A DNA stretch of 39,300 bases from a virus, in the UHGV virus genome UHGV-0123126; one strand, 5' to 3'. How positions within the stretch are numbered: position 1 is the stretch's first letter; every line of letters starts with the position of its first letter. A program made the translations under genes and the position numbers. The notes under the pieces are model-generated. The model did not search any database. It was not told the origin of the DNA and was given only the letters and a program-made list of their open reading frames with translations. This document shows, in pieces, positions 1 through 39,200 of the stretch.

Positions 1-491
1 CGCCACCCCACGATGTATCCGGCAAACACATCAATGATGAACGCCACATAGACGAAGCCCCGCCATGTGCTGACGTAAGTAAAATCAGCCACCCACAGCT
101 GGTCAGGTCGTTCTGCCACGAACTGACGGTTTACGCGGTCGCCTGCGGCAACGGCTTTCCGGCTGATGGTCGTACGGACCTTTTTACCCCGGAGAACACC
201 GGCAAGTCCCATAACCGCCATGAGACGTGCCACAGTGCATCTGGCCACTCTGATACCTTCCCGTAACAACTGACGCCAGACTTTACGCACACCGTATACC
301 TTGTGATTTTCATCGTATACGCGCTGTATCTCTTTCTTCAGCCAGTCATCGCGCTGCGCACGGGCACTGCGTTTATCCGGATGATGTCGCTGTTGCTGAC
401 AGTGGTAATACGTTGACGGGGCAATATGCAGTTCGCTGCATAGCGGTCCGACCCCGTACTGCTCACGCAGCTTATCCAGCAGTGGCATCAT
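1..491 (-). CDS. IS3-family transposase OrfB (DDE catalytic domain), 3' end beyond window start
   Basis: Own translation of minus strand: [22 protein letters not shown]...[36 protein letters not shown], open to position 1. The track ORF 131..313 is in a different, spurious frame. Confidence 0.85.
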
Positions 492-814
492 TTTTTCCAG
501 AGGCGGTCGAACTCCGCCTTCGCAAAATAAGCGGAAGCCTGGCGAAGGATATCGTTACTGCGGCGCAGTTCACGATTTTCACGTTCCAGCTCTTTCAGAC
601 GCTGACGTTCAGCGGTGGTGAGCCCTCCATCACCGCCCCCGGTATCCCGCTCATGCTGGCGAACCCAGACACGCAGAGTCTCCGGCGTACAGCCAATCTT
701 TGGAGCAATGGAACAAATTGTCGCCCATTGTGAGTCATATTCGCTCTGACTTTCCAGAACCATACGGACTGCCCGTTGACGGACTTCGGGGGAAAAACGA
801 GTATTTTTAGTCAT
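488..814 (-). CDS. IS3-family transposase OrfA (HTH DNA-binding, leucine-zipper-like C-terminus)
   Basis: 108-aa [26 protein letters not shown]...; 3' end overlaps OrfB at the frameshift window. Confidence 0.85.
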
Positions 815-868
815 CCTGTTTACCTCTTTCTCAGGAAGTTTAGTCTCCAGGATTCCCGGGGCGGTTCA

Positions 869-1080
869 TAGTGTATTTTCTTCAACAGACCCCAAAGTGT
901 TCCGGCTTTTGTAGTCAGTTTTCCTGTTTCTGGATCGTACATACGCCATTCACGCCGCTGGTGGACGATATACCCATCTTCACGTTCCAGACGCTCAAGA
1001 ATGCCAGGCTGCTTGAAACCCTTAGCACGCCAGTATCCGCTTGTTTTCTCGATTTCCAGACCTGCCAGTGTTAATGCCAT
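869..1080 (-). pseudogene. Small phage ORF interrupted by the IS insertion (about 70 native codons; track ORF 820..1080 ends inside IS sequence)
   Basis: ORF starts at 1080 and crosses the IS terminus at 868/869, so its last ~15 codons are IS-encoded. Confidence 0.5.
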
Positions 1081-1415
1081 TATCCAACCTCCTTGCAGTC
1101 ATCGAAAAGGTAGCTTTGCTGAGAAGCGTGAACGCCATAGAAGCCCTTGTATTTGTTGTATACGAAGTGGTCTTCTCCGACGCCGGTTAATTTGCCATTA
1201 CGATTTGTGAGATATGGGGATGACAACACTCGATCGTCACGCACAACATAGAACTGGTCGCCGCTGTCTACGACCATCGCTCCATATGGTGCTTTTATGA
1301 CGTCGGTAAGAGCGCCATTCTTAACGTCGGCTACAGACATTTCACACTGATAAACAGTGGTGTCGGCCACAACGATCGAAGAAAGGAACAACAGCGCGAA
1401 TGGGATGGCCTTCAT
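1080..1415 (-). CDS. Hypothetical secreted protein (N-terminal signal peptide)
   Basis: 111 aa; hydrophobic N-terminus MKAIPFALLFLSSIVVA; start overlaps the stop of the upstream small ORF. Confidence 0.5.
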   Translation of the reverse strand: MKAIPFALLFLSSIVVADTTVYQCEMSVADVKNGALTDVIKAPYGAMVVDSGDQFYVVRDDRVLSSPYLTNRNGKLTGVGEDHFVYNKYKGFYGVHASQQSYLFDDCKEVG

Positions 1416-1591
1416 GCTGCCACCTCTTTGATTACATCAAATGCTGAATTAAATACGAGCACGATAGCCAAAGCGTTTATGACTACGTCGTGCACCGGGG
1501 AAAAGACTTTACGAATGACACCAGTGAAAATGCAGTCGATGACAAAAGCTATTGAAACGATGAGTAACAAGTATTCAATAAAAATCTTCAT
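1412..1591 (-). CDS. Small membrane protein (59 aa), not in ORF track
   Basis: Own translation MKIFIEYLLLIVSIAFVIDCIFTGVIRKVFSPVHDVVINALAIVLVFNSAFDVIKEVAA; stop overlaps next start. Confidence 0.4.
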   Translation of the reverse strand: MKIFIEYLLLIVSIAFVIDCIFTGVIRKVFSPVHDVVINALAIVLVFNSAFDVIKEVAA

Positions 1592-1630
1592 GATAGGTAG
1601 ATACTAACTTATATAAATTTTACTGTAAAC

Positions 1631-1906
1631 TCACTCAAAAGTGCTGATGCTTAAAATACGCTCAAGATGTTCGGCATCTTCATCACTGATTTGTTGAGTC
1701 TCTTCTACGTACCAACAGTTGCCGTTATGCCAACAAACACCATCATCATCAACCATCACTGAATCAGCGTCATGACCTGTATATTCAACGAGAATACGCT
1801 GGATCAGCGCGTCAGTTTCTTCGTCGTTAAGGCCATCGGCTTTGACCATAAAAAGCGGAAACACGTCATAGACAGTGCTGGTAACGATTCGAACTAAAAC
1901 TCTCAT
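1631..1906 (-). CDS. Hypothetical acidic protein
   Basis: 91-aa ORF, co-directional with neighbours, A/T-rich motif upstream of start. Confidence 0.5.
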   Translation of the reverse strand: MRVLVRIVTSTVYDVFPLFMVKADGLNDEETDALIQRILVEYTGHDADSVMVDDDGVCWHNGNCWYVEETQQISDEDAEHLERILSISTFE

Positions 1907-1961
1907 GTGTTTTTCCTTTTGTGGTTAGTGTTTACTTATTTTGTTAGTTATGAATAGGCGA

Positions 1962-2387
1962 TCAATCTTCTTGTTTAGGGAAAAACTGTTCAATAACTCT
2001 GTCAACGGCTGTGTCTATATGGAGTAGATGCCACACAACCATATCTTTGCTTCCCATGCCTTGTGTGAATATCACGTCATACTTACGCCATGCGCAGTGG
2101 AACCAATATGCTGAGTCATCAATTGGTAAATCCTCTCCCGCCTCTTTGAAGTATTTCAGCAGCATTGCCTGCTCTGCCGTTGGCGTTGGACCTATTTCCT
2201 GAGCGTACATACGGATGAATCGCTGCCAGTCTGTCTCGTCGGGGGTTGGATCTGGTGGGGTCATTTCTGCGATAGCGTTTCGTAGCTGATGCGCCCAATC
2301 AGGTTCAGGAAAGCCTTTTGCTACTTCATCATCAATAACATCCAGAGCCACGTTTGCGGCATCGTAGAGTTTCTTAATAGCTGCCAT
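1962..2387 (-). CDS. Hypothetical protein
   Basis: 141-aa ORF; SD-like AAGGATAAG upstream; preceded by conserved 20-mer TTTTAAACAAATTGTTTTCT (plus-strand spelling). Confidence 0.55.
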   Translation of the reverse strand: MAAIKKLYDAANVALDVIDDEVAKGFPEPDWAHQLRNAIAEMTPPDPTPDETDWQRFIRMYAQEIGPTPTAEQAMLLKYFKEAGEDLPIDDSAYWFHCAWRKYDVIFTQGMGSKDMVVWHLLHIDTAVDRVIEQFFPKQED

Positions 2388-2399
2388 GTTTTCTTATCC

Positions 2400-2419
2400 T
2401 TTTAAACAAATTGTTTTCT
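2400..2419. promoter_or_regulatory. Conserved 20-mer TTTTAAACAAATTGTTTTCT with palindromic core AAACAA-A-TTGTTT
   Basis: Identical 20-mer recurs at 30628..30647; variant AAACAA-C-TTGTTTTCTTA at 33560..33578. All lie just 5' of minus-strand gene starts. Confidence 0.45.
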
Positions 2420-3604: not shown

Positions 3605-5944
3605 TTACTCTTCTACTGACTCGGTGGGGTTGTCTTTTGCTCTTCGGTCGTCGATTGCCTGCAAAGCCGCAATGATTTCAGCCAGTGGCTTCTCCCGATA
3701 CATCTCGACGATCTGCGATTTGGTGTATTTCTTGTCACCAATTTCAACTCGCCCGCTGGCGTTCTTTGGCAGGTATCCTTCTTCCAGCATGTACTCGACG
3801 AGCGATTCGATAACGTCGAGGCCACGAGTAGGATCGAAGTAGAATTTCCAGGTGCATTTGCCATACGGTGGTGCAACTTTGTTTTTGATGCATTCTGCGC
3901 CTACGTCCTGGCCGATCTTCTCTTTACCATCCTTCATCACCGATGCACCAAGACGGATACGTACAGAAGCGTAGAACTTCGGTGAATCTCCACCTGGCGA
4001 CGTAGTAGGGTCGCCAAACATTACACCGATTTTTGTGCGAACCTGATTCAAGAAGATGATGCAGGCGTTGTATTTGCGTGCCCACAAAGCCAGAGTAGGG
4101 AAGTTCGCACTCGTCGCACGAGCCAGTGCCGTATTGTCGTTCATGTTTAGCTGATCTTTGTCTTTGGCTGTGCCTTCAGCCATCTTTTCGAACTTCTCGG
4201 CTTTGGAGTTCGGAACCATAGACGCAAGAGAGTCAGCCACGATACAGATAGGTGCTGATTCGGGGATAAGCTCTTCATCACGAACCAATTTAAGTATTGT
4301 GCCGATCAACTCTACAGAGTCTTCGAAGGTATCTGGCTGCTTGTATACCCACTGACCGTCATCCTCATCTGCGTTCAGGCCATTGGCTACAGCCAGGCCA
4401 ACGTCAAAACTGTTTTCATGATCGAGGAATACCGCCAGACCATCTTGTTTTTGAGCGGAGATCATCGCTGCTGTTGCAAGGAATGTGTTGTGGCTGATAA
4501 TCCCGTTAGACCAGAAAGAGTGTGTTTCCGGCATCGCTACGTCGAACGTTGGTGCTTCACCTTCCTCAATAGCCACGACTTCGTCGTAGAACAAGTTAGA
4601 GCCAATTACCGCTGCCAGTTGTGCAAACAGATGCTCGTTAAAACGATTCTTTCTGCCAATGAAGGAGACATAGATTTCTCGCAGTTTGTCTATTCCGACA
4701 CGATCGCCGCGGCCAATAACGTGGTCTACCAGAGCGTAGTCTTCACGGGTGGTCTTGGTGAGCGACTCGTAGAGTGATTTCACTAAGCCGCTGATGTGCG
4801 GAACATAGCCTGAGTAAGTGCGGTCAAAACCAATGTCCCGTTTGGTTGCCACTGATAAACGTGCCGGAGATTCGAAACCAATCGTTGACAGAAAAAGGTC
4901 GTAATTAGAGCCACTGAATGACAGCCGGTAATATGTATTTTCATAACCCGCGACGTGTTTTTCAGAGATAGTTGACGTAATCCCCAGATTCAGGAGCATG
5001 AGGCGAATTTGCTGTAGCAGCAGCCCACTCGCGCTCACAACCTCAATGCAGCGACCATCATTGACGTGGCATTCCAGCTCAAAGTAGCCGCGAAGGAATG
5101 CAATTTGAGCCTCGCTATTGGCGCGACGCACACTCAACGGAACCTGCTTGCCAGCAGCTTTCTCATACTCCAGACCATATTCTTTAAAAAGCAGCGAACG
5201 CACCTCTTTGCTAAACAGCACATGGTCTTCCGAGCCGTTATGTTTTCTCGTAACTGGCATCTTGTCTGATACCAGCGAAATGAGGCGGTAGTACTCATCC
5301 TTGATGAAAGGATCTGTGTTAGAAAAATTCACTGAATTTTCAGAGGCCACGTATCCGTCAGCAATTAAATAGCCCATCAGTTTTGCGATATTGGCATCCA
5401 GGTGCTGATCGCCGAATTGATGTGTGCCAACCATTGAAGGAATCGTGTCGCCTACACTGATTTTTTCAGCATGTCGCCAGACGACATTACCTAAGTCGTC
5501 AACCACACGGATTGGGTGACGGAACGTAGCCTCGATATAACCGCCTGATGCCAGCTTAATACGCTTGAATTTGCGACGGTTGTTCCATGTCAGGTGTGAG
5601 GTCTTCTCTATCACGCCATTTTCATTGATGAGTCCAACGTTATGCTCTACATCGCGAGTAGTGCATGTCGCTTTGTACCCTTCAATCTCAAACAACTCTT
5701 TCACTGTTACCATTCCACGCTCCGTCAGCAGCATGGTGTCTGCGGTAACACATTTCCCCGCGCTTGGTGGCCCGAATACTTCTACGATACGACCACATGG
5801 GAAACCGCCATCGTAACGACCGGAAATAGCTTTGTTTAACGGAGGAAAGCCTGTGTCAATCCAATGAGTTACTTTCTGAATTTCGTCGTTGCTACCGATT
5901 TTCTTTTTCAGAGCAAGTGCCAGTGCGGATTTTCCTTTTGCCAT
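3605..5944 (-). CDS. recA: RecA-family recombinase (RecA/UvsX-like) interrupted by an intein; 779-aa precursor, about 357-aa mature protein
   Basis: N-extein ends GRIVEVFGPPSAGK (Walker A); C-extein resumes TFLATAAM... and contains NQVRTKIGVMFGDPTTSPGGDSPKFYASVRIRLG, closely matching the E. coli RecA core recalled from memory. Confidence 0.9.
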   Translation of the reverse strand: MAKGKSALALALKKKIGSNDEIQKVTHWIDTGFPPLNKAISGRYDGGFPCGRIVEVFGPPSAGKCVTADTMLLTERGMVTVKELFEIEGYKATCTTRDVEHNVGLINENGVIEKTSHLTWNNRRKFKRIKLASGGYIEATFRHPIRVVDDLGNVVWRHAEKISVGDTIPSMVGTHQFGDQHLDANIAKLMGYLIADGYVASENSVNFSNTDPFIKDEYYRLISLVSDKMPVTRKHNGSEDHVLFSKEVRSLLFKEYGLEYEKAAGKQVPLSVRRANSEAQIAFLRGYFELECHVNDGRCIEVVSASGLLLQQIRLMLLNLGITSTISEKHVAGYENTYYRLSFSGSNYDLFLSTIGFESPARLSVATKRDIGFDRTYSGYVPHISGLVKSLYESLTKTTREDYALVDHVIGRGDRVGIDKLREIYVSFIGRKNRFNEHLFAQLAAVIGSNLFYDEVVAIEEGEAPTFDVAMPETHSFWSNGIISHNTFLATAAMISAQKQDGLAVFLDHENSFDVGLAVANGLNADEDDGQWVYKQPDTFEDSVELIGTILKLVRDEELIPESAPICIVADSLASMVPNSKAEKFEKMAEGTAKDKDQLNMNDNTALARATSANFPTLALWARKYNACIIFLNQVRTKIGVMFGDPTTSPGGDSPKFYASVRIRLGASVMKDGKEKIGQDVGAECIKNKVAPPYGKCTWKFYFDPTRGLDVIESLVEYMLEEGYLPKNASGRVEIGDKKYTKSQIVEMYREKPLAEIIAALQAIDDRRAKDNPTESVEE
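4487..5752 (-). other. Intein (422 aa) with LAGLIDADG homing-endonuclease domain, inserted in the RecA P-loop
   Basis: Begins with Cys right after GPPSAGK, ends ...SHN followed by Thr; internal LMGYLIADGYV motif. Confidence 0.85.
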
Positions 5945-10044: not shown

Positions 10045-10228
10045 AGCATCGTTGGTTTGCAAGACAGACCTTATGTAAGCAGTTTTAGTAAAGCAGTCTC
10101 AGTTCAGTGTTATCTTCTGATTTCCCTTCTTCGTGAGTCTCCTCCTTAAGTGCCTAAGTAAGTCCCAATCTATACAGATCAAATTCTCGCCGCACTATGT
10201 GGCTCACAAAATTAAGAAGGTAATATCT

Positions 10229-10444
10229 ATGTCTAATAAAATGACTGGTTTAGTAAAATGGTTTAACTCTGATAAAGGCTTTGGCTTTATTTCTCCTGCT
10301 GATGGCAGTAAAGATGTTTTTGTACATTTTTCGGCAATTCAGAGTAATAATTTCCGCACTTTGGAAGAAGGCCAGCAGGTCGAATTCTCTATCGAGAATG
10401 GGGCTAAAGGCCCAGCAGCAGCAAATGTCGTTGCTCTAAGCTGA
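10229..10444 (+). CDS. Cold-shock protein, CspA family (CspB/G/I-like), 71 aa
   Basis: [38 protein letters not shown]... carries the RNP1/RNP2 motifs of CspA-family proteins; the track ORF is extended upstream. Confidence 0.9.
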
Positions 10445-10720
10445 TTCAACGCTGATGATCCTCATTTCTACAATAACGAAGACGGTGTAAGCCTGAGTGG
10501 ATAGATTTGTAGGATTGTACAAGTTGAATAAATTAGCATGGTAAGGCCATGCTAATTAAATCGACACAACGGCCAGTTTATTCCATAAAAGTGAATTGCC
10601 CATTGTGGCGAAATGCGGGGTTGCCGCATGAATAGTCAAAGGCAGAAGCTAACTGCCGGCATGGCAAAACAAAGTGCGTAAGAGGAGTGACTTCCTCAAC
10701 AAGCGCCATAATTCTTTATA

Positions 10721-22018: not shown

Positions 22019-22105
22019 TGGCGGAGAGTAATGGAATCGAACCATCATCGTTTGCACAATGGGACGGTTTTCAAGACCGCTTGAGCACCATGCTCCCTAC
22101 TCTCC
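22019..22105 (-). tRNA. tRNA-Ser (anticodon UGA), class II with long variable arm, CCA encoded
   Basis: Hand-folded: acceptor GGAGAGT/ACTCTCC, anticodon loop CTTGAAA, T-loop TTCGATT, discriminator G + CCA. Confidence 0.6.
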
Positions 22106-22322
22106 AATTGTTGTGGTTACCGGTACTGATCTCCGGCTTAGCGACCCCGGCTACTGACTGCATTGCAGTGTGTGAACTCGCCTCGTGTGTCGCTGGGGCA
22201 TTTCTTTCCGCGCATCAGTCTGCGCATCAACCACAACGAAAAGAGCACTGTATGACGTTTGCACGGACTTACGCTTAAAACAGGGCAGTCTCGGCGGTTT
22301 TCAATGCTCTTTCCTGTTGTGT

Positions 22323-22398
22323 TGGTGCCGGTTAACGGACTCGAACCGCTGACATCCTGCTTACAAGGCAGGCGCTCTACCAACTGAGCTAAACCGGC
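22323..22398 (-). tRNA. tRNA-Thr (anticodon UGU), CCA encoded
   Basis: Hand-folded: acceptor GCCGGTT/AACCGGC, D-arm GCTC..GAGC, anticodon stem CCTGC/GCAGG with loop CTTGTAA, T-loop TTCGAGT. Confidence 0.8.
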
Positions 22399-22402
22399 AA
22401 TT

Positions 22403-22489
22403 TGGTGGGGAGTGATGGAGTCGAACCACCCGAGTCGCCATGACAGTAGATTTACAGTCTACACCGCTACCTCTACGGACTAACTCCCC
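22403..22489 (-). tRNA. tRNA-Tyr (anticodon GUA), long variable arm, CCA encoded
   Basis: Hand-folded: acceptor GGGGAGT/ACTCCCC, anticodon stem GTAGA/TCTAC with loop CTGTAAA, T-loop TTCGACT. Confidence 0.8.
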
Positions 22490-22494
22490 TAAAT

Positions 22495-22569
22495 TGGCGA
22501 TGGTGGGTGGATTCGAACCACCGACCAGTTGGTTAACAGCCAACTGCTCTACCGCTGAGCTACACCATC
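22495..22569 (-). tRNA. tRNA-Asn (anticodon GUU), CCA encoded
   Basis: Hand-folded: acceptor GATGGTG/CACCATC, anticodon stem GTTGG/CCAAC with loop CTGTTAA, T-arm GGTGG-TTCGAAT-CCACC. Confidence 0.8.
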
Positions 22570-26859: not shown

Positions 26860-26979
26860 CTTTTCGGCGATTGGGTATGCTGACAGTTAAGCTAAATTGA
26901 AGTAATCTTACCAATCGGTGATTACAAAGCCTTACACCGAGTAGCCACAACCACCTAACCATCTTGTGAAAATCCAAAA

Positions 26980-28017
26980 ATGAAACATTTCAAACCAATA
27001 TCTTTCTTTATGTTGTCGCTATTACTTGTTTCGGGGAGTGCACATGCCTATGAAATACAAAAGCTGATCGATGCGGCAAAAGCAGGCGACGTTGAGTCAC
27101 AGAGTGCTTTAGGTATCGACTATATGAAAGGTATTCATGGTGTCGAAAAAAACTACGATGAAGCCAGAAAATGGCTTGAACTGGCGACTTCTAAGGGGAA
27201 CAAAGAAGCGTTTAATGCTCTAGGTATAATGTATGCCCTTGGGTATGGGGTTGATAAAAATTTCAAAAAGGCTGAGGAACTCTTTAAGAAAGCTGGTGAT
27301 GCAGCTGGAGGCAACTCTTATCACAATCTGGGTGTTATTTATCATAAAGGACTTGCGGGTAAGAAAGACCAAAAACTTTCCCTGAAATATCACAAACTTG
27401 CAGTAGAGGCTGGCGACCCTGAATCTGCGTCATATCTAGGACAGTTATATTATGTTGGCGCAGGCGTGCCAAAAAGCTACAAAAAGGCAATAGAGTATTA
27501 TAAAAAAGGAATCGAACTAGGCAGTGCATCTGCATTGGCGAATCTTGGCATTATGTATGAGTATGGTGAAGGGGTTAAAAAAGATTATAAAAAAGCAGCT
27601 GAGCTTTATCAGGCAGCTTGCGATAAAGAAGATAAAAATGGCTGTGATTACATTGCAGAACTAAAAGAAAGCGGTAAATACCAACCATCAGCAGCAAGAT
27701 CTAAAGCAAAATCCTCCACTCAGCGACTTATTGCTAAATCCATTGATAAAGGCGTTAACGCAACATTTACCTGGCAGGGTGATGATGCCACCTTCACCGC
27801 TAATGATGGCAAAATTGACTGCACTTTCCTAAAGGATTTTTCAGAGAAAGGAGGCAATCTGGCTACCTCGTTTGTTTGCACCGATAACGTTCAAATCATC
27901 CTGAAGCAATTCAGAGATACCAAGAATGCCTACCTCGCGGTAATGACTGACAACTTCAACACAGAAGTTAAATCATTTTCGGTCAATGTTTACGTGACTA
28001 ATACTGGTTCAAACTAG
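26980..28017 (+). CDS. Secreted Sel1-like repeat (TPR-like) protein with N-terminal signal peptide
   Basis: Signal peptide ending SGSAHA; repeated about 36-aa units with A-x-x-G-[VI]-x-Y and K-A-x-E-[LW]-[YF]-K-K-A spacing. Confidence 0.8.
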   Translation: MKHFKPISFFMLSLLLVSGSAHAYEIQKLIDAAKAGDVESQSALGIDYMKGIHGVEKNYDEARKWLELATSKGNKEAFNALGIMYALGYGVDKNFKKAEELFKKAGDAAGGNSYHNLGVIYHKGLAGKKDQKLSLKYHKLAVEAGDPESASYLGQLYYVGAGVPKSYKKAIEYYKKGIELGSASALANLGIMYEYGEGVKKDYKKAAELYQAACDKEDKNGCDYIAELKESGKYQPSAARSKAKSSTQRLIAKSIDKGVNATFTWQGDDATFTANDGKIDCTFLKDFSEKGGNLATSFVCTDNVQIILKQFRDTKNAYLAVMTDNFNTEVKSFSVNVYVTNTGSN

Positions 28018-29190
28018 TGCTGCAATGCCTTTCACCTTGCTTAAGAGTTCAAGCTGTCGTGAATAAGGTTTTGCGCAATAGTAGGCTTTGATAATCTGCC
28101 CCGGTGTCGCATCGCCGGGGTCGAGTCCTTCCTCGCCCAAACACGCAACTTTGACATTAAGGCCAATACTTGTGAGTCGCCTAGCTGCGGCCATAGTGTT
28201 GCGTATAGCTTGCTTTTCACTATCCCACATCATGATCACATTACGTAATCCACGCGCCTTGAGCGTCAGGAACGCGCCCAGCTGATCTTCTGCATCCTGA
28301 GTGGTGTTGCCAGATAGATGCATCCCGAACGTTCCTATTGGTTCCACGTAATCACGTAATGTTTCTTCGTCAAAAATAGCTCGTTTGACCCCCATAACAT
28401 CGAACGCCCCCTCACAGACAACTACCGTCTGTTTGCCGACTGCATTATGGCCGTTGTAGAGAAACTTACCTGAAGCTGGAAGCTGCACAGGAAAGAGGTA
28501 GCGACGTTCTGCTGTACCGGTAATGTCTCGTCCCTGAAATGTCTTCATTACCCCATCCAGATCGTAAACCGGTATCAGTATTCGCATATCGAATATCTGT
28601 CCTTTAACCTGATCTGTATACGGATCTACATAGGCGTGCTTGCCTTCGACGCAGTATCGTAGGTCAAAATACTTTGCCATTTCAGGCGATATGTTTCGTT
28701 CAACCAGATAGTCTGGAAGACGACCATCTATAGGAAGCTCGTAATGACGAGGGAGTGCAACTGGCCCCTCTAACTCGACTGTGCTTGCAAGCACTAGCTC
28801 TTCTTTCTTTGGTGCCCACCCCTGGGAAAGAAGGGCGTTCTGCACATATTCCTCGAACTGTCGTCGTGATTTGCCGCTGTAGTGCTTGAGGAAGACCAGC
28901 TTATTGAACTGAATCTCTTCGGGATGATCACCAGCGAAGCATTTACCGACGCCACTGGTCAGATTGAAATATACCTTCCAGTTGGAGCTGCCACATACCG
29001 GACACTCCTTGATATTCACTTCACGACCGCGAGTACTCACGCCTCCACGTCGATAAACGATACCTTCAGTATCCAACCATTGTTCAAAATCTAATTCGGT
29101 AATTAGCTCTTTCAGCTCGCTCACGATAATTCCACTTTTAACAGGCAATATTGTGACCAACCTAAATGTTGATATAACATAAAGGCTCAT
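28009..29190 (-). CDS. DNA primase (zinc-finger plus TOPRIM); start uncertain (track ORF begins at GTG 29262)
   Basis: Zinc ribbon CPVCGSSNW...KCFAG; TOPRIM-like VVVCEGAFDVMGV; ATG at 29188..29190 avoids the hairpin at 29241..29258. Confidence 0.75.
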   Translation of the reverse strand: MSLYVISTFRLVTILPVKSGIIVSELKELITELDFEQWLDTEGIVYRRGGVSTRGREVNIKECPVCGSSNWKVYFNLTSGVGKCFAGDHPEEIQFNKLVFLKHYSGKSRRQFEEYVQNALLSQGWAPKKEELVLASTVELEGPVALPRHYELPIDGRLPDYLVERNISPEMAKYFDLRYCVEGKHAYVDPYTDQVKGQIFDMRILIPVYDLDGVMKTFQGRDITGTAERRYLFPVQLPASGKFLYNGHNAVGKQTVVVCEGAFDVMGVKRAIFDEETLRDYVEPIGTFGMHLSGNTTQDAEDQLGAFLTLKARGLRNVIMMWDSEKQAIRNTMAAARRLTSIGLNVKVACLGEEGLDPGDATPGQIIKAYYCAKPYSRQLELLSKVKGIAALV

Positions 29191-29271
29191 GTGTTTTTCT
29201 TTTGTGGTTTGGCAAAAGAAAAGTTGTTTCACCAATGAATCAAGCGTGGAGGTGTTCTCCACGCTTATTTT

Positions 29272-30612
29272 TTAGGTAACGTCTAAGATTCGCTCAATGA
29301 AGCGCATTTGTTCGAGGTTTTGTTTAACGCGAATGCTGATCCCTCCCTGCTGGTTACGTGAACCAGCAAAGTAGAGACGAGCCTCTCCTTTCGCTTCTTC
29401 TTCTTCGGTTTTGTTGATCGTTATTACCAGGTCAGCAATACGTACTTTTTCGATGTTGTCGGCAGCGTGCATCATTGTGGCAACTTCTGACGCGCCACCT
29501 TCACGGTTTGTCTGCGATGCCGTGATCCCAGCAACGTTATGCTTGTCATAAAGAGCACGTAAATCGGTGTAGATACTACGAATGTTGGCGCGATCATCTC
29601 GAAGGTCATAACTGGCACGCATCAAATCTGCGTAGTCGACAACAACCATGTCAGGCACCATGCCGTTGGCTTTCATGCTGTTAAGCATACGGTCCAGATC
29701 TGCCGGTGACATACTTCCTGACGGACGCTCAACAACCCACAAACTACCAATACCCTTCGTAGCTCCCAACTCTGCCAACTTGCGATGAACTTCATCGCGC
29801 CGTTCCACCAACTTGGACATTTCCGTCTCCGACAATCTTGCATCAAAACGGTCGGATAAAATGGTGGTGTGAACCTCCAGCGAGAGATACAGAACATTGT
29901 AGCCAGCAAGTGTTGCGTTTATGGAAAACTCACCCATTGCGGTCGATTTACCGGATTTAGCGAACCCCATGAAGAGCACCATTTCGCGCTTTGCCCAGCC
30001 TTTTTGGTACAGCAACCTATCGAGAAGAGGGAGTCCAGTTGTAATACTGTTTGGTACATACTCCTCTGAAGCCTCATATTCACGCGCTTTCAATCGCTCA
30101 CTTGCGGAGGTGTAGTAGTCATAGATTCCGGTCGCTTCGTTCGATCCAATCTGCTGAACCTTGGCCATGATTGCCATCGCCCCGTGAAAGTCGCCTTTCT
30201 CTTTCAGTTCAGCAGCCTTAATCAGAGCATCATCAAACGCTACACTTTTTGCGAAGGTTGATACCTGGTCAACCATGTACGAGGTATCGGACAATTTTTC
30301 TGCAAGAATGCGCTTAAACGCAGCAACAACATCGGCGAATAGTTCCTCACGGATAGTCTTATCGCGTTTCGCACGCTTAAGCATATCCAGAATTGCAGAT
30401 GAAGAGGGCGCGCTCTTGTACATACGGTAATAGCCCGAAACCATATTAACCAATATGGCATTGGCCGCATTGGCAAATTGGCTAGGTACAACCAGATCTC
30501 CAGCACGAGTAAGAAACTCGTGATCACGACAAAAATAGGCCGTCAATCTGTTCTGAAAATCTTCATCAAACTCTTCGGACAGCCCGCGTCCTGTATGGCA
30601 AAGTTCGGTCAT
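29272..30612 (-). CDS. dnaB: Replicative DNA helicase, DnaB-like
   Basis: Walker A GFAKSGKST, RecA-fold C-terminal domain, 446 aa; directly upstream of the primase. Confidence 0.85.
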   Translation of the reverse strand: MTELCHTGRGLSEEFDEDFQNRLTAYFCRDHEFLTRAGDLVVPSQFANAANAILVNMVSGYYRMYKSAPSSSAILDMLKRAKRDKTIREELFADVVAAFKRILAEKLSDTSYMVDQVSTFAKSVAFDDALIKAAELKEKGDFHGAMAIMAKVQQIGSNEATGIYDYYTSASERLKAREYEASEEYVPNSITTGLPLLDRLLYQKGWAKREMVLFMGFAKSGKSTAMGEFSINATLAGYNVLYLSLEVHTTILSDRFDARLSETEMSKLVERRDEVHRKLAELGATKGIGSLWVVERPSGSMSPADLDRMLNSMKANGMVPDMVVVDYADLMRASYDLRDDRANIRSIYTDLRALYDKHNVAGITASQTNREGGASEVATMMHAADNIEKVRIADLVITINKTEEEEAKGEARLYFAGSRNQQGGISIRVKQNLEQMRFIERILDVT

Positions 30613-30655
30613 GTGCTTTCCTTTGTTTTTTAAACAAATTGTTTTCTAGTATTAG

Positions 30656-31396
30656 TTAATTAGATAGGGGATCAATAAACCGCCGTGCTTCTTCCAGTTC
30701 TTCTGGAAAGTGGGCGGAAATAAGGCGCTCTGGAACGATTTCCATTAGCCAGATAGCGGAGAAAATTGCGCGTATGCGCTTGCTGCGGGGGATGGTGCGT
30801 AAACGCTCCAGAATCCACTCAAAATAGCTTTCCTGAATCGGGTTGAACTGCATGTCTCCCATATGCTTAAAGCTAACGAGAGAGTCATCCAGACGGGTTG
30901 TTGCGCGTCTGGCTAATTTCTCTTCGAATATCTCAATCAGCTCTGGCTGCCATAAATGCTGTGGGCGCGGCAGCTTGTCCCACAGCCGTCGTGCAGCTGC
31001 GGAAAGAACGGTGGAGATAAAGTAGTCGTATGAGCAGCAATAGCGGTCAGCATACTGGCGTGCTTTCCATAGCGACGTTTTATTGGCAGTCGACAACTCC
31101 TGATAAGGCAGGCGTTTTAACCCGGTGGTGAACGGAGCTGTTTCAAAGTGTTCGCGACCGTGCGTCAGCATGATATTTGAGTACTGACGTTTGTATGCCT
31201 CCGTAAAAAGACAGGTGGCCATGAGAGGATGCATGTCGCGGTAATCAAACCACTTCGTCTCGAAGAGTTCAGCCTCGTCTTTACAGCGCGACAAACCAAT
31301 GTTTTCAGCGACCCACTTGTCCATAACAGCGGTATTCCACTCTGTCATGAAGTCGTACTGGTCGTTGTCGATGGTATCGAAAAAGATTTGGCTCAT
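30656..31396 (-). CDS. Hypothetical protein (about 246 aa from ATG 31394..31396; track ORF starts at GTG 31405)
   Basis: AGGTGA SD 7 nt before the ATG; conserved GGTAGGTAGTTACTTACTTATC upstream. Confidence 0.5.
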   Translation of the reverse strand: MSQIFFDTIDNDQYDFMTEWNTAVMDKWVAENIGLSRCKDEAELFETKWFDYRDMHPLMATCLFTEAYKRQYSNIMLTHGREHFETAPFTTGLKRLPYQELSTANKTSLWKARQYADRYCCSYDYFISTVLSAAARRLWDKLPRPQHLWQPELIEIFEEKLARRATTRLDDSLVSFKHMGDMQFNPIQESYFEWILERLRTIPRSKRIRAIFSAIWLMEIVPERLISAHFPEELEEARRFIDPLSN

Positions 31397-31678
31397 GTGG
31401 CTCACCTGGTAGGTAGTTACTTACTTATCACAATGAACGGATGATAGCGACTGGTGGCAGTTTTTGGAAGTGGAAACGGAAGGGAGTTGTTCTGGTGGTG
31501 TCTTTTAAAAGACCTGCTTCCGTATATATTTAATAAGTTACTTATTATTTATATATACAGAAGCAGGCATAACTTGTCGTCTTAGACGCCCAGAAGCTCT
31601 ACACTTTGAGCCTGTTAAATTGATTAAAAACTTATGTGTAAAATAGAACGCATTAGTCAGTAGCTAAGAGATGCAATA

Positions 31679-32446
31679 ATGGACGATTTATCGGTATACG
31701 CGAGATCATTGGATAAGGCTAAATACTATGTTTACTGTCTCTATGATACAGAAGACAAGATGAAAAGACCGTTTTACATAGGAAAAGGCAAATCGACTCG
31801 TTGTCTCGATCACATCAAGTATCCCGATGACTCTCCCAAATCCATGCGGATCAAAGAACTTTTGGCTAATAAAAAATTAGGCATAGATATTCTTCGTCAT
31901 GGTATGGATGAAACCACAGCCAAACTTGTTGAGGCGACATGCATCGACCTTATGGGGGTCGGAGAGCTTACGAATAAGGTACGAGGAAGTGGTTCCATGA
32001 TGGGCAGAATATCACTGGACGCCTACCATCACTTAGTGCTGCAAGAGGAAACTGAAATTGCTCCTGAGCACGCCGGTCTTGCCTTCCTGCTAAACAGCAC
32101 CTACAAGTCAGGAATGTCCGCTCTGGCATTATATGAAGCTACGCGTGGCGTATGGGCAAAGGTTCCAAGAGACGAGAATCTCAAATATGCCTACGCTACA
32201 TATGGTGGGCTAATAATGGAAGTTTATCAGATTGAATGCTGGGTCAAAGCCGGTTCTCAGCAGTACTTTACAAGGGATATAGCTCTTGGCCCCGACACAA
32301 AACGTTATGAATTTGTTGGCAGAATAGCCGATGAGCATATTAGAAAACTGTATGTAGGCAAATTAATCAAGAAGCCACCAAGCTACGGTAGCCCTTTTGT
32401 GAAGGTTGGGGTGGTTAGGACTGAACATAGTGTTAGCGCGGCATAA
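31679..32446 (+). CDS. GIY-YIG nuclease-domain protein with uncharacterised C-terminal domain
   Basis: N-terminal YYVYCLYD...PFYIGKGKSTR fits GIY-YIG; isolated plus-strand gene with strong terminator. Confidence 0.7.
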   Translation: MDDLSVYARSLDKAKYYVYCLYDTEDKMKRPFYIGKGKSTRCLDHIKYPDDSPKSMRIKELLANKKLGIDILRHGMDETTAKLVEATCIDLMGVGELTNKVRGSGSMMGRISLDAYHHLVLQEETEIAPEHAGLAFLLNSTYKSGMSALALYEATRGVWAKVPRDENLKYAYATYGGLIMEVYQIECWVKAGSQQYFTRDIALGPDTKRYEFVGRIADEHIRKLYVGKLIKKPPSYGSPFVKVGVVRTEHSVSAA

Positions 32447-32460
32447 AGCTGACACTGTAG

Positions 32461-32500
32461 TCATGCATTGGCGCAATGTACGCGCCAATGCATGATTTTT
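32461..32500. terminator. Strong rho-independent terminator: 14-bp stem TCATGCATTGGCGC / GCGCCAATGCATGA, 7-nt loop, TTTTT
   Basis: Perfect stem, T-run on plus strand after the GIY-YIG gene; also abuts the parG-like 3' end. Confidence 0.7.
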
Positions 32501-32858
32501 AACCTTTCTTCATCAACTCTCGTTTGATTTCATCGGTACGCATCGTGACATCGGCAGCGGTGATCGCCTCATTCAATTTCACGATGTCCTCGATTTCCTG
32601 CGGTGACTTCTCTGCCAGATGGAAAATGGCTGCTCGAATCACGTCAGAACGAGTGAACTTCTCGAAGCGAGGGATGAACTTCATCATCTCCAGCAGTTCG
32701 AAGTATTCGTCCTCCAGTGACATTGTGCGGCTTTTAATTTTCTCTTTGCCACGAGTCGGGCGTCCCTGTGGTCTGACTGGTTGGCGCAAAGGAGTTGTGT
32801 TCTTAGCCGGTGCATCAGGCTCTTTGCGCTTTGCTAGGTCACCCATTTTCATGGACAT
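32499..32858 (-). CDS. Small ParG-like partition/centromere-binding protein (basic N-terminal tail, possible ribbon-helix-helix)
   Basis: 119 aa, Lys/Arg/Pro-rich N-terminus then structured C-terminus; start overlaps parA stop (TAATG). Confidence 0.55.
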   Translation of the reverse strand: MSMKMGDLAKRKEPDAPAKNTTPLRQPVRPQGRPTRGKEKIKSRTMSLEDEYFELLEMMKFIPRFEKFTRSDVIRAAIFHLAEKSPQEIEDIVKLNEAITAADVTMRTDEIKRELMKKG

Positions 32859-33526
32859 TATTCTTCTTCCTCCAGACTCAACAGATAATCTACAAATTCT
32901 TCAAACTCGGCTTCCGCCTTTTTGTCGCGCTCGCTACCGGTCATTTCAAAGATAGAACGACCAGACTCTTCCGCATCATCATAGACGTTGCGGTTATATA
33001 GATTGACTGGCGCAGACTCGATGCCGAACGTCTCGACAATCTCTTTAGCCGCCAGAATGCGAGACACTTGTGATGGCAAAGCCGGGCACTGGTTCATGAC
33101 CGCGCGGACCTTCACTTTATCGTTTACATTGCGAACATTGTCGATAATAGGATCGATGTCACGTAAAGATTTCAAATCACGACGCTTAGGACGCAGCGGG
33201 ATAATGATAACGTCAGCCATCAGCATCGCTTGTCGCTGAATTTCGGAGTCGAAGCCACCAGCATCTACCACTACAAACTCAGCTCTACCCTGAAGCGATT
33301 TTAGGTGCTTAATGATGTCATCCTGAACGTATGCAAAAGGAATCAGCTCAAGGTCTTCGTTCTGTCGACGGTCTTCACACCAGCTCGTTGTCGTGCGCTG
33401 AATATCTATATCGGTAATATAAACCTTCTTCTTCTTTTTGACTTTCAGGCAAACGGCAATTTGCTGGGCAACGGTGGATTTGCCAGGCCCGCCCTTTGTG
33501 CCGCCAACCACAAAGATCTTGGTCAT
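32858..33526 (-). CDS. parA: ParA/Soj-family partition ATPase (deviant Walker A)
   Basis: VVGGTKGGPGKST deviant Walker A near N-terminus; 222 aa; followed by small basic protein. Confidence 0.85.
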   Translation of the reverse strand: MTKIFVVGGTKGGPGKSTVAQQIAVCLKVKKKKKVYITDIDIQRTTTSWCEDRRQNEDLELIPFAYVQDDIIKHLKSLQGRAEFVVVDAGGFDSEIQRQAMLMADVIIIPLRPKRRDLKSLRDIDPIIDNVRNVNDKVKVRAVMNQCPALPSQVSRILAAKEIVETFGIESAPVNLYNRNVYDDAEESGRSIFEMTGSERDKKAEAEFEEFVDYLLSLEEEE

Positions 33527-33844
33527 TGGAGAGTTCCCTTTGCGTATATAATTATCGTCTGAAACAACTTGTTTTCTTATATGTGATATAGCCTAAATGC
33601 CTACGGCTGCGGTGTAAAGGTTAAATGGTAGGTTGTGATTAACAATTGGCAATCATAGCTTGTATTTGTCTGTTGAAAAAAGTAACAATGACCTCTATAT
33701 TACAAGTACGGTGATATGCCGTACACAATTTGATAATGCACACGTAATGGGCTATAGCCTTTTAAAGTAATTTTTGAGTCGAAAACTCAGTTTGAACAGA
33801 GGAGATTGATGGCCTTCCTACATCACGGCCATCAGGAGGAATAC

Positions 33845-34114
33845 ATGTCAGCACTAAAAAAGCAGCGCATCGATTTGAGATTAACCGATGACGATAAAAG
33901 CATCATCGAGGAAGCTGCCGCAATGTCTAACCAGAGCATTACTCAGTTTATGGTTAGCAGTGCATCTGAACGTGCCGTGAAAGTTATAGAGCAACACCGT
34001 AGACTAGTTCTGAATGAAGAATCCTGGAATCTGGTTATGGACGCTATAAGCAATCCTCCGGCACCGAACGACAAGCTGAAACGAGCTGCTGATCGTCTGA
34101 AAAGCATGGAGTAG
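33845..34114 (+). CDS. TacA-type (DUF1778-like) antitoxin of a GNAT toxin-antitoxin pair
   Basis: 89 aa from ATG 33845 with AGGAGGA SD; MSALKKQRIDLRLTDDDKSIIEEAA...; 7 nt before the GNAT toxin gene. Confidence 0.8.
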   Translation: MSALKKQRIDLRLTDDDKSIIEEAAAMSNQSITQFMVSSASERAVKVIEQHRRLVLNEESWNLVMDAISNPPAPNDKLKRAADRLKSME

Positions 34115-34121
34115 TTTACTC

Positions 34122-34643
34122 GTGAGCAATACAACGATAGAGATTTTCTCTGGAGAGAAAGATTATGATCTAAACGGTTTTGATTGCGGCGAAGAGTCAC
34201 TAAACGCCTTTTTAGCCAACCACTTAAAAAGGCAGCATGAGGGAAAAATTCTTCGTGCTTATGTGCTTTGCACTCAAGAAGAAAGGCCAAAAGTGTTAGG
34301 ATATTACACTTTGTCAGGTAGTTGTTTTGAAAAGGAGTCCTTACCTTCAAGAAGCAAACAAAAGAAGGTTCCTTATCGGAATGTTCCAAGTGTTACTTTG
34401 GGTAGGCTGGCTTTGGACAAGTCCCTTCAAGGTCAAGGATTTGGCTCAATGCTTGTAACACATGCAATGCGCGTTGTGTACAATGCATCTCTTGCTGTAG
34501 GCATTCATGGACTTTTCGTTGAGGCGTTAAATGACAAAGCCAAGGCGTTTTATAAAAGTTTAGGCTTTATCCAGCTGGTTGGTAACAACGAGCGTTCTTT
34601 GTTCTATCCTACAAAATCTATCGAAAAATTGTTCGAAGAATAA
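34122..34643 (+). CDS. GNAT-family acetyltransferase toxin (TacT/AtaT/KacT-like)
   Basis: 173 aa, GTG start; FDCGEESLNAFL, ILRAYVLC, YYTLSGSCF, QGQGFGSMLV match AtaT-type toxins as recalled from memory. Confidence 0.85.
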   Translation: MSNTTIEIFSGEKDYDLNGFDCGEESLNAFLANHLKRQHEGKILRAYVLCTQEERPKVLGYYTLSGSCFEKESLPSRSKQKKVPYRNVPSVTLGRLALDKSLQGQGFGSMLVTHAMRVVYNASLAVGIHGLFVEALNDKAKAFYKSLGFIQLVGNNERSLFYPTKSIEKLFEE

Positions 34644-34675
34644 TGTGTTCCCCTCATTTGAGGGGAACTTCGACA

Positions 34676-34891
34676 TCACCAACCACAAACCCTCTCTCCC
34701 ATCGTATTGTGAAAAAGGATTTGGCGTTCGGTTTCTTCAGTCATTACATCATTATTGCTGATATAGATAGGCTCAGCCCCATCGCAGAACAACACGCTGG
34801 CTGTTTGTGGTTTAATGACGCACCCACTTATCATACAACTCACGATGAACGGCAGAAGCATCTTTCTGACGTATTTTACTGCTCGTCTCAT
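34676..34891 (-). CDS. Putative o-spanin (outer-membrane lipoprotein, Rz1-like), overlapping the i-spanin
   Basis: Lipobox ISGC after hydrophobic segment; embedded in an alternate frame overlapping the 3' end of 34812..35063. Confidence 0.5.
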   Translation of the reverse strand: MRRAVKYVRKMLLPFIVSCMISGCVIKPQTASVLFCDGAEPIYISNNDVMTEETERQILFHNTMGERVCGW

Positions 34892-35063
34892 TCACCACTT
34901 TCACTGTGTTTTGAAGTCGTTTTCTGTCTTCCTGTTTTGCCTTCTCTTCCATTGCTCGTCGCGCCGCATTCCCGCCCATCGTGTAAGCGCCGACAAGAAC
35001 GAAAAGAACGGCAGCCAGCGTAATCAAAGCAACTTTTAGCTTTGTCATCAGGCTGCCTAGCAT
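34812..35063 (-). CDS. Putative i-spanin (Rz-like: N-terminal TM helix plus charged coiled-coil)
   Basis: 83 aa; TM segment VALITLAAVLFVLVGAY then Lys/Glu/Arg-rich region. Confidence 0.5.
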   Translation of the reverse strand: MLGSLMTKLKVALITLAAVLFVLVGAYTMGGNAARRAMEEKAKQEDRKRLQNTVKVVNETSSKIRQKDASAVHRELYDKWVRH

Positions 35064-35064
35064 A

Positions 35065-35757
35065 TTAGACCATCCCTTTCTGGTGTTTTCTTACCTGCGA
35101 CCAGGCAATGAATCCTGCCACAACAATAGTGGCAATACCGAAGATGATGCGTACTGTATCCCCGCTAGAGATATGACCTTGTGCTTTATCCATAGCAGCG
35201 GAAACCTGCGGCATAACATCGGCCAGCTGCGCCAGACCAATACCTGCTGTAACAGTTGCGCCTGCAGTTTCTTTAGTTACAGGAACAGCCTTCACGGTTT
35301 TCACCGGCTTAACAACGCCAGCTCGACGCAGACCTTCCTCAATAACTTCTGCCGCATACCAGGTGTTCAGCGTTTTTAGCGGGCCTCGGCCATTCTCGTG
35401 GCGAATGATTGCCTCAACCAAAGGTCGAAGGATGTCGTAATCATGCAGATCGATGATCATGTCTGCGGTTACACCAACGGCTTTAGACACCTCATTAATG
35501 TAGGCGTCAGTATTGTTTTCATTCGGCGGTGCCCAGCGTTCAATAACTTCACGAATGGTATCGATACTTGTGCCGTCTTTTGCGCGACGTTTATCGTGGT
35601 AGGTAATTAGAGTCACCGCCAGCGCACGAATCCCCCAAACAGGGTCTTTAAACGTGCAAAAGCGCGGTTCGTCTGGATTCGCAACCAGACCTTGCCACGG
35701 TGATCCTTTATCAAGATTACCGGGGTTATTATTACGAATGCCTCTCGGAGTCTTCAT
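35065..35757 (-). CDS. Putative endolysin-like protein with C-terminal TM anchor (catalytic class not recognised)
   Basis: Position between membrane protein and spanins; motif PRGIRNNNPGNL; ATG at 35755..35757 has AGGAG SD (track ORF extends to 35784). Confidence 0.4.
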   Translation of the reverse strand: MKTPRGIRNNNPGNLDKGSPWQGLVANPDEPRFCTFKDPVWGIRALAVTLITYHDKRRAKDGTSIDTIREVIERWAPPNENNTDAYINEVSKAVGVTADMIIDLHDYDILRPLVEAIIRHENGRGPLKTLNTWYAAEVIEEGLRRAGVVKPVKTVKAVPVTKETAGATVTAGIGLAQLADVMPQVSAAMDKAQGHISSGDTVRIIFGIATIVVAGFIAWSQVRKHQKGMV

Positions 35758-35770
35758 CCTTGATCTCCTG

Positions 35771-36094
35771 TTATTGCAGTCCACTTTTTACGCCATACGC
35801 GGCTAACCCCAAAAGCAGTGCGGTAATAATGAACGACGTTATTTTAGAAACAATGCCGCCAAAGAACCCACTTGAGATGGAATCTAACCGGTTAAGGAGT
35901 TTGTCCAGATTGGAGTGTTGAATACTATGTTGCGCCGGGGTCATATCACCAAAGTAGGTTTTCAGCTGATCATTGACCTCCTGGCCAATTTCTTCACGTA
36001 GCTCTTTACCTAATTTGCCAACAACCTCCCGAGCAACGATCGCGGCAATACGCTCAACTTGCTCTGTTGTAACGCCCGCCATCTCGTTCGACAT
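35771..36094 (-). CDS. C-terminally anchored membrane protein, possible holin-like lysis component
   Basis: Single TM helix near C-terminus; GGAGG SD before the internal ATG at 36092..36094 (track ORF starts at 36106). Confidence 0.35.
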   Translation of the reverse strand: MSNEMAGVTTEQVERIAAIVAREVVGKLGKELREEIGQEVNDQLKTYFGDMTPAQHSIQHSNLDKLLNRLDSISSGFFGGIVSKITSFIITALLLGLAAYGVKSGLQ

Positions 36095-36296
36095 GTTTTC
36101 CTCCATGAAAAGTCAAATCGGGATGGCGGATTTATATCACACTTCTCCTTTCAATTATAGGTATATACTTACCTATCTATGTATATACCGTTTAACGGCT
36201 GTTCAAATTCGTATCTAGTAACTCACTAATATATCCCTATGATTGCGGCTGTGAGATCGCATTTTAAACCTCACAGCCATATAAATAATGTCTAAA

Positions 36297-39200
36297 TCAG
36301 TTACTTGTTGCCCCAACAGTACCTGCAAATTTCAGCCATTGACCTGACGGACTTCTATTACTACGGTAGTGATAAACGAGGATTGCGTTTGTAACTCCAC
36401 CGTAGTCAGCTTTATGTGACGTTGTTAAACGAATTGTATAATCACCGTTAGGTAGATTAAAAACTTCGATTATAGATTCTGCTAATTCTACAGCACCAAA
36501 TCCCGTTATATTGTTGATACTGCCAGCATTGAATCCCATAGCATCGCCAAAGCCAATCCAATAACTTTTGCTAAACGCCCCATTTGATTTTAGGTGGCTA
36601 ATGAATGTGGACAAACTCATGCCCATATCCCCACCTGAAACAGAGGAAGTTCGCACAGTCATGCTTGGAAGAGCACTGCTCTTCACATAGGAACTTAGAA
36701 GGTTTGTTACCTCTGTTTTCGTATAGGCATTAAGGTTAGCCGCAGTCAAAGTAATATCGGCAGAGCCATCAAACGCCACACCAGCAATTTTCCTTGCTGT
36801 CTGCAATTTTGTGGCGGTTGCGGCATTACCAGTAGTGTTCTGGTTCCCATCTGCATTCACACCTGGGATGCTGTCTTTTTTAGTATATATCTGAGTCCAG
36901 TCCTCTTCGAACCCATAGCCATCACGTGATGAACGGTAATACAATCCACCATTTTTATAATGCGCTCGGATTTGGAGAGTCCGACAACTACCTACGCCTG
37001 TATAAAAATTTGCAACGATATAAGAATCCCCGGAGCGTGTAACATTATACGCACCTGATTCGGCATTCCACGGGACCGCACCACTAGCATCGGCATAAGT
37101 TCCAGTAGCGCGTCGAGCAAAAGCAGATACATTTGCAGCTGTTAGTGTTATATCAGCAGAACCATCAAAAGCCACGCCACTTATTTTTCTGGCAGTTTGT
37201 AACTTTGTAGCCGTAGATGCATTACCGTTCAAACTACCATTGATGCCGCCAGTAACATTGAGTCCATTACCAATGGACACAGCACCGCTGGTATTGTTAA
37301 TTGTAATCGGTCGCAAACCGTTCCATGAACCTAATGTGTCTCCTGATGCTGTTAGCATGAAATATGTGTTCGACCCATCATTACGGATAAAGAACCCAAA
37401 GCTACCGTAAGCAATGCGGAAACCATTTGCATATTTTGAAACGATCTCACCAGAAGACGTTAACCCTCCAGATAATGTGCCACCTGAAAGCGGTAATGCG
37501 CCGACATCCGTGGCGGTCGGTTTAATGTGCGAACTGTAAATGACATATACCGTTCCATCAGTAAGACCAGTTGGTTTATTCGCTGTATAAGTTGGTGATG
37601 TATGAATCGTTACGCTGGCGTTACTGGTATAATCCCACTGAATATTAACACCTGTGGCGTAATTACCTATTTCAACATAAACATCATAGGTATCACCGGA
37701 TGTATTCACCCATGCAAAATTAGTAAATCCAACCGATGTCCGTCGCCATAATGCACCAGTAATACCCTTTGGATTTCCATTTCCGGCACGCAGAACCAGC
37801 TCAGAGATGCCTGCTTGATGCGGGGAGCCAACGTTATACCCTGCACCACCAATCAGGCTTATGTAAACCACGGAACTGGCCTGTGGCATGGTTACAGTTG
37901 CCAGCTTGAACCATCCGGCACCACCAATAAAAGACATTGTTGCTGAGTTGATCGTGCCTATAGACCTTGGAGTTAGCTCAATGTTTTTAGAACCGTCAAA
38001 CGACACCCCATTAATAGTACGCGCAGTCTGCAACTTCGTAGCAGTAGCCGCATTACCTGTTGTATTCTGATTACCAGTCGTATTAACACCTGGCAAATTA
38101 ATATTTGCAGTACCATCAAAGCTCACGCCGCCGATAGTTCTTGCCGTCTGTAGTTTTGTAGCAGTTGCAGCATTACCAGTGGTGTTCTGATTACCCGTAG
38201 TGTTTACACCTGGAAGGTTAATATTTGCAGAACCGTCGAAAACAACTCCACCGATAGATCTTGCCGTCTGTAATTTCGTTGCTGTAGCAGCATTTCCTGA
38301 AAGACTTGAAATAAATGGATGTGAACAGTAATAACCTCGTCCATTTTTAAAGTCCAAAATTATCTGTGCATTCGTACTTTCTGATAAAGGATCAGTTGCC
38401 CCCCACTTATAAGTGGTTTGACCAACTGCATAATCAGCCGTTGGAACAATCACATTTAATCCTTCCTCAGCAAAAATCTGGATAGGGAATGCTCTTGTCT
38501 CAACGTAAAATACACTACACAAATCATCATCTTTCACGCTTGCGATAATCGAGTGTATAGATCGTTCAACGGTTGAATATATTGAGAAAAAACCAACAGC
38601 ATATGAACCGCGATCAGACCAACCGCCCGGCATAACAAAACCATTAAACTCACAATTATTCATAGCGTATCCGCCAGCTGAGGAATAAGTGGTGATAACC
38701 ACTCGTGAGGCTAATTCATCTGTGCCACCACCAGTTCGGCGAAAGACTACAGGATACCACTTACCGCTTACTGCATTTGCAGGAGCAGAGAAAGTGTATT
38801 TTCGCATCCCCTTTTTCTTATCCACTTCACCTTTGCTGTAAACATTAATGTTATTCAGGAAGCGGCCCTTGTCGGGGATATCAGCACCATTCTGATCCTT
38901 CTGTAGTCGTTTTTCAGCATTATCATATGCGGTCTTAACTGCTTTTGGTGTCGCGGCTAAAGATTCACTGGTGCTGTCGACAGCACTGCTAAGTTTCACA
39001 ACACCTTTGGTGGTAAGGCTTGCATCTTCCATCGCAACTGCACCGGCAATCTCTTCAGCACGATCAGCAGCAGCTTCCGCACGGGTCGCAGCGGATTCAG
39101 CAGCAGTTTTGCTCTGAGATGCTGCCGTCGCACTGCCTGCCGCCTCTGTTGCTTTCGTGGATGCTGTCGTGGCGCTGCCCTTCGCTGCGGACGCTTGTCT

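Follow-up and report, generated by a model that had tools for sequence, protein, structure and literature searches.

The window analyzed here, i.e., the whole 39,300-nt stretch of DNA, is one entire assembly contig (ENA ERZ783165 NODE_1_length_39300_cov_9.1) that ends within an insertion sequence (IS). Its left end is occupied by part of an IS629 element, which abuts a small gene resembling cra of phage P1, and from position 869 on the window is SSU5-like phage-plasmid DNA (Table 1). This Cra-like gene is the third of three minus-strand small genes that overlap end to start (1591-1412, 1415-1080 and 1080-869) and form a string that reads into the IS. Promoter-like sites, defined by consensus match only, were found on the minus strand at 1629-1590.

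Table 1. Features at the IS629 end, the junction and the adjoining small genes, in window coordinates.
Feature	Position	Strand	Basis or remark
Left 868 nt of IS629 (1310 bp, IS3 family)	1-868	-	100% identity; contig end cuts the element at window base 1
5' part of orfB, -1 frame, 163 codons	3-491	-	Frame open through to the contig end
Programmed -1 frameshift region within ALIL pseudoknot match	417-533	-	Rfam RF01497
orfA, 108 aa, helix-turn-helix transposase N-terminal protein	488-814	-	ORF list; Pfam HTH_Tnp_1, E 7e-13
IS-derived extension: codon 71 TA/T (Tyr) in place of TAA, 15 IS codons and a stop	820-870	-	Reading of the ORF across the junction
Left terminal inverted repeat (IRL) TGAACCGCCCCGGGAATCCTGGAGA	844-868	-	Minus-strand reading; ends at 868
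Insertion point 868/869 and predicted target-site duplication, TAG or TAGT	869-872		Duplication predicted; second copy past the contig end
Complete native coding sequence (70 codons) of the Cra-like small gene (phrog_804)	871-1080	-	70-aa proteins of relatives
Two co-directional small genes upstream of the Cra-like gene: 59 aa (1412-1591) and 111 aa (1080-1415)	1080-1591	-	ORF list; phrog_2535, phrog_2077

The IS part of the window is identical, at 868 of 868 bases, to IS629 copies in many E. coli chromosomes and plasmids, some of which carry the RefSeq name 'IS3-like element IS629 family transposase'. IS629 (isoforms IS1203/IS1203v) of E. coli O157:H7 and of Stx prophages shows 99.4 to 100% nucleotide identity to the window over the 868 nt, the lower value being that of Stx-phage copies labelled 'IS3 family IS629', and shares with it the terminal repeat, orfA, the A6 run, the ALIL pseudoknot and orfB. 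Compared with IS629 in a lambdoid prophage or chromosome, only the insertion site differs, which here lies in an SSU5-like phage-plasmid. A 1310-bp element matching window 1-868 at 100% was found in 3,487 of the 5,426 complete E. coli genomes, in both chromosomes and plasmids, and IS629 occupies a median of 4 and a maximum of 52 places per complete genome.

The terminus of the element is defined by two other copies. The 1310-bp IS629 feature annotated in LC567824 terminates at the base that aligns with window 868, and a full IS629 copy in plasmid p120899_146 (1059-2368 of the stretch compared, of which 1501-2368 align to the IS part of the window) has the same boundary as the window. The initial annotation, made from the sequence of the window, had described an IS629-like element of the IS3 family with a terminal repeat ending exactly at 868, and both points agree with these comparisons. 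For IS629, inverted repeats that start with 5'-TG would be expected at both ends; the left repeat, seen in the window, matches the right-end repeat TGAACCGCCCCGGGTTTCCTGGAGA of the full p120899_146 copy at 23 of 25 bases, and the right end of the window's own copy lies beyond the contig end. With the right 442 bp of IS629 absent from the contig, one IS end and one junction are visible rather than a complete insertion, and the far IS end and target-site duplication are out of reach because the contig stops inside IS629.

Within these limits the layout of IS629 is present, with orfA (helix-turn-helix) and orfB in 0 and -1 frames, an A-rich slippery site and a structured RNA downstream of it. OrfA covers positions 1-86 of the NCBIfam IS3 family transposase profile, and its gene is closed by the slippery A6 run (TGG AAA AAA TGA, 499-488), which lies inside a full-length match to ALIL (120 bits; gathering score, 50). 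The orfB part corresponds to positions 93-249 of 369 of the NCBIfam IS3 transposase profile and to Pfam HTH_21 and the first 40 positions of rve, i.e., the window covers just the beginning of the DDE integrase core, and the rest of orfB lies past the contig end. Identical IS629 copies in RefSeq are annotated with a 'programmed frameshift' and the pseudoknot. [quoted passage not shown]

The 70-aa translation of the Cra-like gene is identical in PhiR41_1 and pEC7518-111k and differs by one residue from the phage Cyrano protein annotated as 'P1 Cra protein'. It matches phrog_804 over its full length (E 6.5e-34), a family to which PHROGs gives no function, and had no match to a Pfam or NCBIfam family. 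A tblastn comparison with P1 Cra, the uncharacterized Cre-associated protein of 73 aa, gave 43.5% identity over 62 aa (89% of the query, E 1e-4), and the copies in Cyrano and SSU5 are annotated as Cra or Cre-associated. Judged by this similarity the protein is a distant homologue of P1 Cra, a membership that is uninformative on mechanism. The gene is conserved, as SSU5-like elements from Escherichia, Salmonella, Klebsiella, Enterobacter, Cronobacter, Serratia and Yersinia pestis carry homologues that are 61-94% identical. Unlike P1 Cra, the window gene ends a small-gene string that in relatives adjoins a repA/iteron module, and its product carries a 16-residue tail encoded by the IS. Length variants of the protein also occur in the databases. 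In one of 65 aa, residues 1-32 are joined to unrelated sequence (PRQPGGCKLKTAPVRP...), which may represent a different insertion within the gene body in another strain; further length variants look like frameshifts.

In the window, the minus-strand ORF running from 1080 to 820 encodes 86 aa, with codons 1-70 in phage-plasmid DNA, codon 71 (870-868) across the junction and codons 72-86 in the IS. The fusion protein is therefore made up of the native 70 residues and a basic tail of 16 residues, close to the about 15 IS-derived codons that had been proposed for the end of this ORF; codons 72-86 are wholly IS sequence. The TAA of the fusion ORF (822-820) stands 5 nt ahead of the orfA ATG (816-814). 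The initial annotation had further regarded the gene as disrupted by an element inserted into it, and as evidently dispensable. This description does not fit the locus, where 70 of 70 native codons are intact and the product is only extended; because the Cra-like gene is extended and not truncated, the insertion is uninformative on its dispensability. AlphaFold2, run on the 86-aa fusion with 18 sequences, gave a poor model (mean pLDDT 57, with residues 72-86 below 50); the position of the tail after the C-terminal helix in this low-confidence model fits a floppy appendage. A sequence search of the PDB returned nothing below E 0.07.

Comparison with IS-free relatives recovered the intact gene, which in PhiR41_1, Cyrano and pEC7518-111k is 213 nt long (70 codons and a stop), the stop codon being TGA in pEC7518-111k and TAA in the others. 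In every IS-free relative, including pMB5646_2, PhiR41_1, Cyrano and pEC7518-111k, the match to the window breaks at 868/869 and is followed by unrelated, non-IS sequence. None of the close relatives shares sequence across 868/869, which bears out the earlier reading of this junction as an insertion. On the plus strand, the empty site of pMB5646_2 and PhiR41_1 has the sequence ...GCAGTCAGTTTGCATT / TAGTGTATTTTC, and the coding strand reads ...AAA ATA CAC TA/A, where the slash marks the insertion point. The IS629 end thus splits the stop codon of the Cra-like gene after its second base. Another IS629 copy is annotated with a 4-bp target-site duplication. The left junction predicted for the far side of the element, GCATTTAG(T)TGAACCGCCCCGGGTTTCC (flank, TAG or TAGT, and right IS end), was not found in GTDB representatives or IMG/VR, a result that says little, as these two collections are also without the right junction.

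The relatives also show what lies beyond the stop codon where IS629 is absent. In an IS-free relative, a G+C-rich terminator-like hairpin of 9 bp begins about 8 nt past the stop codon and is followed by iterons and then by the 3' end of a convergent repA. In pMB5646_2, 11 iterons (TATGCTGTCAGCGGT) lie downstream of repA (1094-1632 of the examined stretch), the last about 44 bp from the insertion site. The order of repA and then an iteron array here resembles the repA-incA layout of P1. Two distinct repA/iteron modules are found among the IS-free relatives, one in PhiR41_1 and pMB5646_2 and the other in Cyrano and pEC7518-111k, and the two types part precisely at the Cra-like stop codon, i.e., where the IS junction also lies. 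From these alignments, the stop codon looks like a recurrent mosaic boundary.

The DNA that IS629 adjoins is that of the SSU5 group of phage-plasmids. Window 869-39300 is largely collinear with Salmonella phage SSU5, with the E. coli phages Cyrano, PhiR41_1 and CMS-2020a, with plasmids pMB5646_2 and pEC7518-111k and with relatives of Y. pestis pMT1. The E. coli members are 98-99.9% identical to the window over long stretches, compared with about 75% for SSU5; across window 869-2400 the values are 99% for PhiR41_1, CMS-2020a and Cyrano and again about 75% for SSU5, and PhiR41_1 is overall approximately 98% identical to the phage-plasmid part of the window. The closest record, E. coli plasmid pMB5646_2, matches window 869-26863 (26 kb) at 99.4%, the match beginning exactly at 869, and window 28063-36869 (8.8 kb) at 98.6%. 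Two other stretches, 26864-28062 and 36870-38801, lack a near match in pMB5646_2 or reach only about 76% identity to it, and are local module replacements in a backbone that is otherwise 98.6-99.4% identical.

Both phage and plasmid genes are found in this collinear part, including those for a DNA polymerase III alpha subunit, an intein-bearing RecA-like protein, a primase, a helicase, a ParA-like ATPase and tail proteins; the repA/iteron module itself lies outside the window. The RecA-like protein (779 aa; 3605-5944, minus strand) is split by an intein with a LAGLIDADG homing endonuclease, an arrangement conserved in relatives, and has Pfam matches to Intein_splicing, LAGLIDADG_3 and RecA_N. 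A full-length match to the cspA thermoregulator RNA (RF01766, 186 bits) followed by a cold-shock-domain gene occupies 10051-10469 on the plus strand, and four tRNA genes (Ser-TGA, Thr-TGT, Tyr-GTA and Asn-GTT) are clustered at 22019-22569 on the minus strand. Phage-plasmids of the SSU5 group that differ only by gain or loss of an IS have already been reported, according to the legend of Fig. S9 of a recent preprint (bioRxiv 10.1101/2025.09.12.675607). Literature on the sample accession and on IS629 in phage-plasmids yielded nothing specific.

The junction itself is rare. At least 1000 contigs encode the exact 70-aa protein, compared with 8, all of them ENA contigs, that encode the 86-aa fusion. 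Unlike the window, none of the SSU5-group records in the phage, plasmid and complete-genome collections carries IS629 at this site; searches of 50,697 phage records, 72,556 plasmids and 5,426 complete E. coli genomes did not find the junction, and an exact 37-mer across it was absent from GTDB species representatives, IMG/VR and JGI metagenomes. Because the IS is 100% identical to other copies, an IS-free relative is 99.4% identical to the window and the junction is absent from all six collections, the event appears to be a recent one, and the distribution indicates an insertion that is rare and restricted to one lineage. The initial annotation had taken the presence of an IS as a sign of prolonged residence in a host, which is trivially the case for an element with a plasmid-prophage lifestyle; the identity values, however, point to a recent acquisition and do not favor the long residence that had been suggested.

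Taken together, these observations very probably reflect a recent, simple insertion by which IS629 entered an E. coli SSU5-like phage-plasmid within the stop codon of its Cra-like gene. An IS629 copy would have transposed into the phage-plasmid by the copy-out-paste-in route through a circular intermediate, with OrfAB supplied by programmed -1 frameshifting, as expected from what is known of this IS family. The element lies within the stop codon, where the plasmid replicon module (repA and iterons) meets the phage small-gene string, with its left end and transposase genes oriented as the Cra-like gene, and the outcome is the 86-aa protein of 70 native residues and a basic 16-residue tail. The unseen right IS end would then be followed by the repA/iteron flank, ...CTAAATGCAAACTGACTGCGG, with a duplication of 3-4 bp.

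The far side of the IS is where another explanation could apply, since every contig examined that contains the junction terminates inside the element. IS629 might mark a rearrangement, such as an adjacent deletion, an inversion, an exchanged replicon module or a cointegrate formed with the chromosome or another plasmid, and something other than the repA/iteron module would then follow the IS. The divergence of the two modules of the relatives exactly at the stop codon, a natural mosaic boundary, is in line with this, as is the report that IS629 makes adjacent deletions when IEE is present (bioRxiv 10.1101/2023.06.07.543989). Positive support for a rearrangement was not found, however, and a clean IS terminus beside collinear DNA of 99.4% identity is the pattern of a simple insertion; moreover, a phage-plasmid that had lost repA or the iterons would not be expected to persist as a plasmid. 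A rearrangement is therefore considered unlikely.

An assembly chimera, in which a chromosomal IS629 was joined to a phage-plasmid contig, is considerably harder to reconcile with the data. Such an artifact would be favored by the low coverage (about 9x according to the contig name), by the highly repeated nature of IS629 in E. coli (see the copy numbers above) and by the end of the contig within the IS, but the two parts meet precisely at the last nucleotide of the IS and not at a shared k-mer. An identical junction was, in addition, recovered with another assembler under a separate assembly accession, and 8 contigs in total encode the fusion protein. The MEGAHIT contig k141_8112 of the separate assembly ERZ27276128 is identical to the window over 1853 nt spanning the junction and ends exactly 141 nt into the IS, a length equal to k, as expected where a genuine junction leads into a repeat that breaks the assembly. 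The break at window base 1 is likewise attributable to IS629. The greater reach of the SPAdes contig into the IS (868 nt, compared with 141 nt for MEGAHIT) could stem from a coverage gap or from a sample with few IS copies. A chimera is accordingly rated as very improbable. The proposal that the sequence across 868/869 is ancestral and was lost by the relatives is refuted and has next to no probability, as no evidence was found for it, the left part is a mobile element present at full identity at thousands of unrelated sites, and relatives across several genera have, at this site, a normal stop codon followed by the hairpin.

If the simple insertion favored here is correct, the operon of small genes is cut off from its terminator-like hairpin by IS629, and transcripts of the string would run on into the IS, sense to its transposase genes. 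The initial annotation had suggested that the IS could exert polar or promoter-out effects on neighboring small genes. Polar effects on phage genes are unlikely because the Cra-like gene is the last in its co-directional string and faces, in relatives, the convergent repA/iteron module. Promoter-out effects find no support either, the promoter scan having detected no promoter-like site at the IS end or facing outward from it, and any outward transcript from the IS end would be antisense to the small genes.

Translational coupling of the fusion ORF to the transposase genes is conceivable because no more than 5 nt separate the stop of the fusion ORF from the orfA ATG. An operon-driven transposase, translated by termination-reinitiation, would couple transposition and excision of the element to the operon, and, separately, the tail might alter the activity of the Cra-like protein; these consequences are both regarded as improbable. 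The predicted RNA fold of the read-through junction (780-930, minus strand) was no stabler than that of shuffled sequences (z -0.31), and the fold gives no evidence for a structure that sequesters the orfA ribosome-binding site at the junction. The insertion is probably close to neutral, since it is located at the 3' end of convergent transcription units, and near-neutrality would account for its persistence.

The locus is a real, correctly located and ordinary insertion of a known element, which fits the known patterns of IS629 and of the SSU5 group, and its importance is slight, bookkeeping apart. More generally, ORFs that appear to be interrupted by an IS need to be checked against IS-free relatives before inactivation is called; in this case the ORF was complete and only extended. 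For the E. coli SSU5-like phage-plasmids, the insertion provides a precise marker allele for one sub-lineage, represented by 8 ENA contigs.
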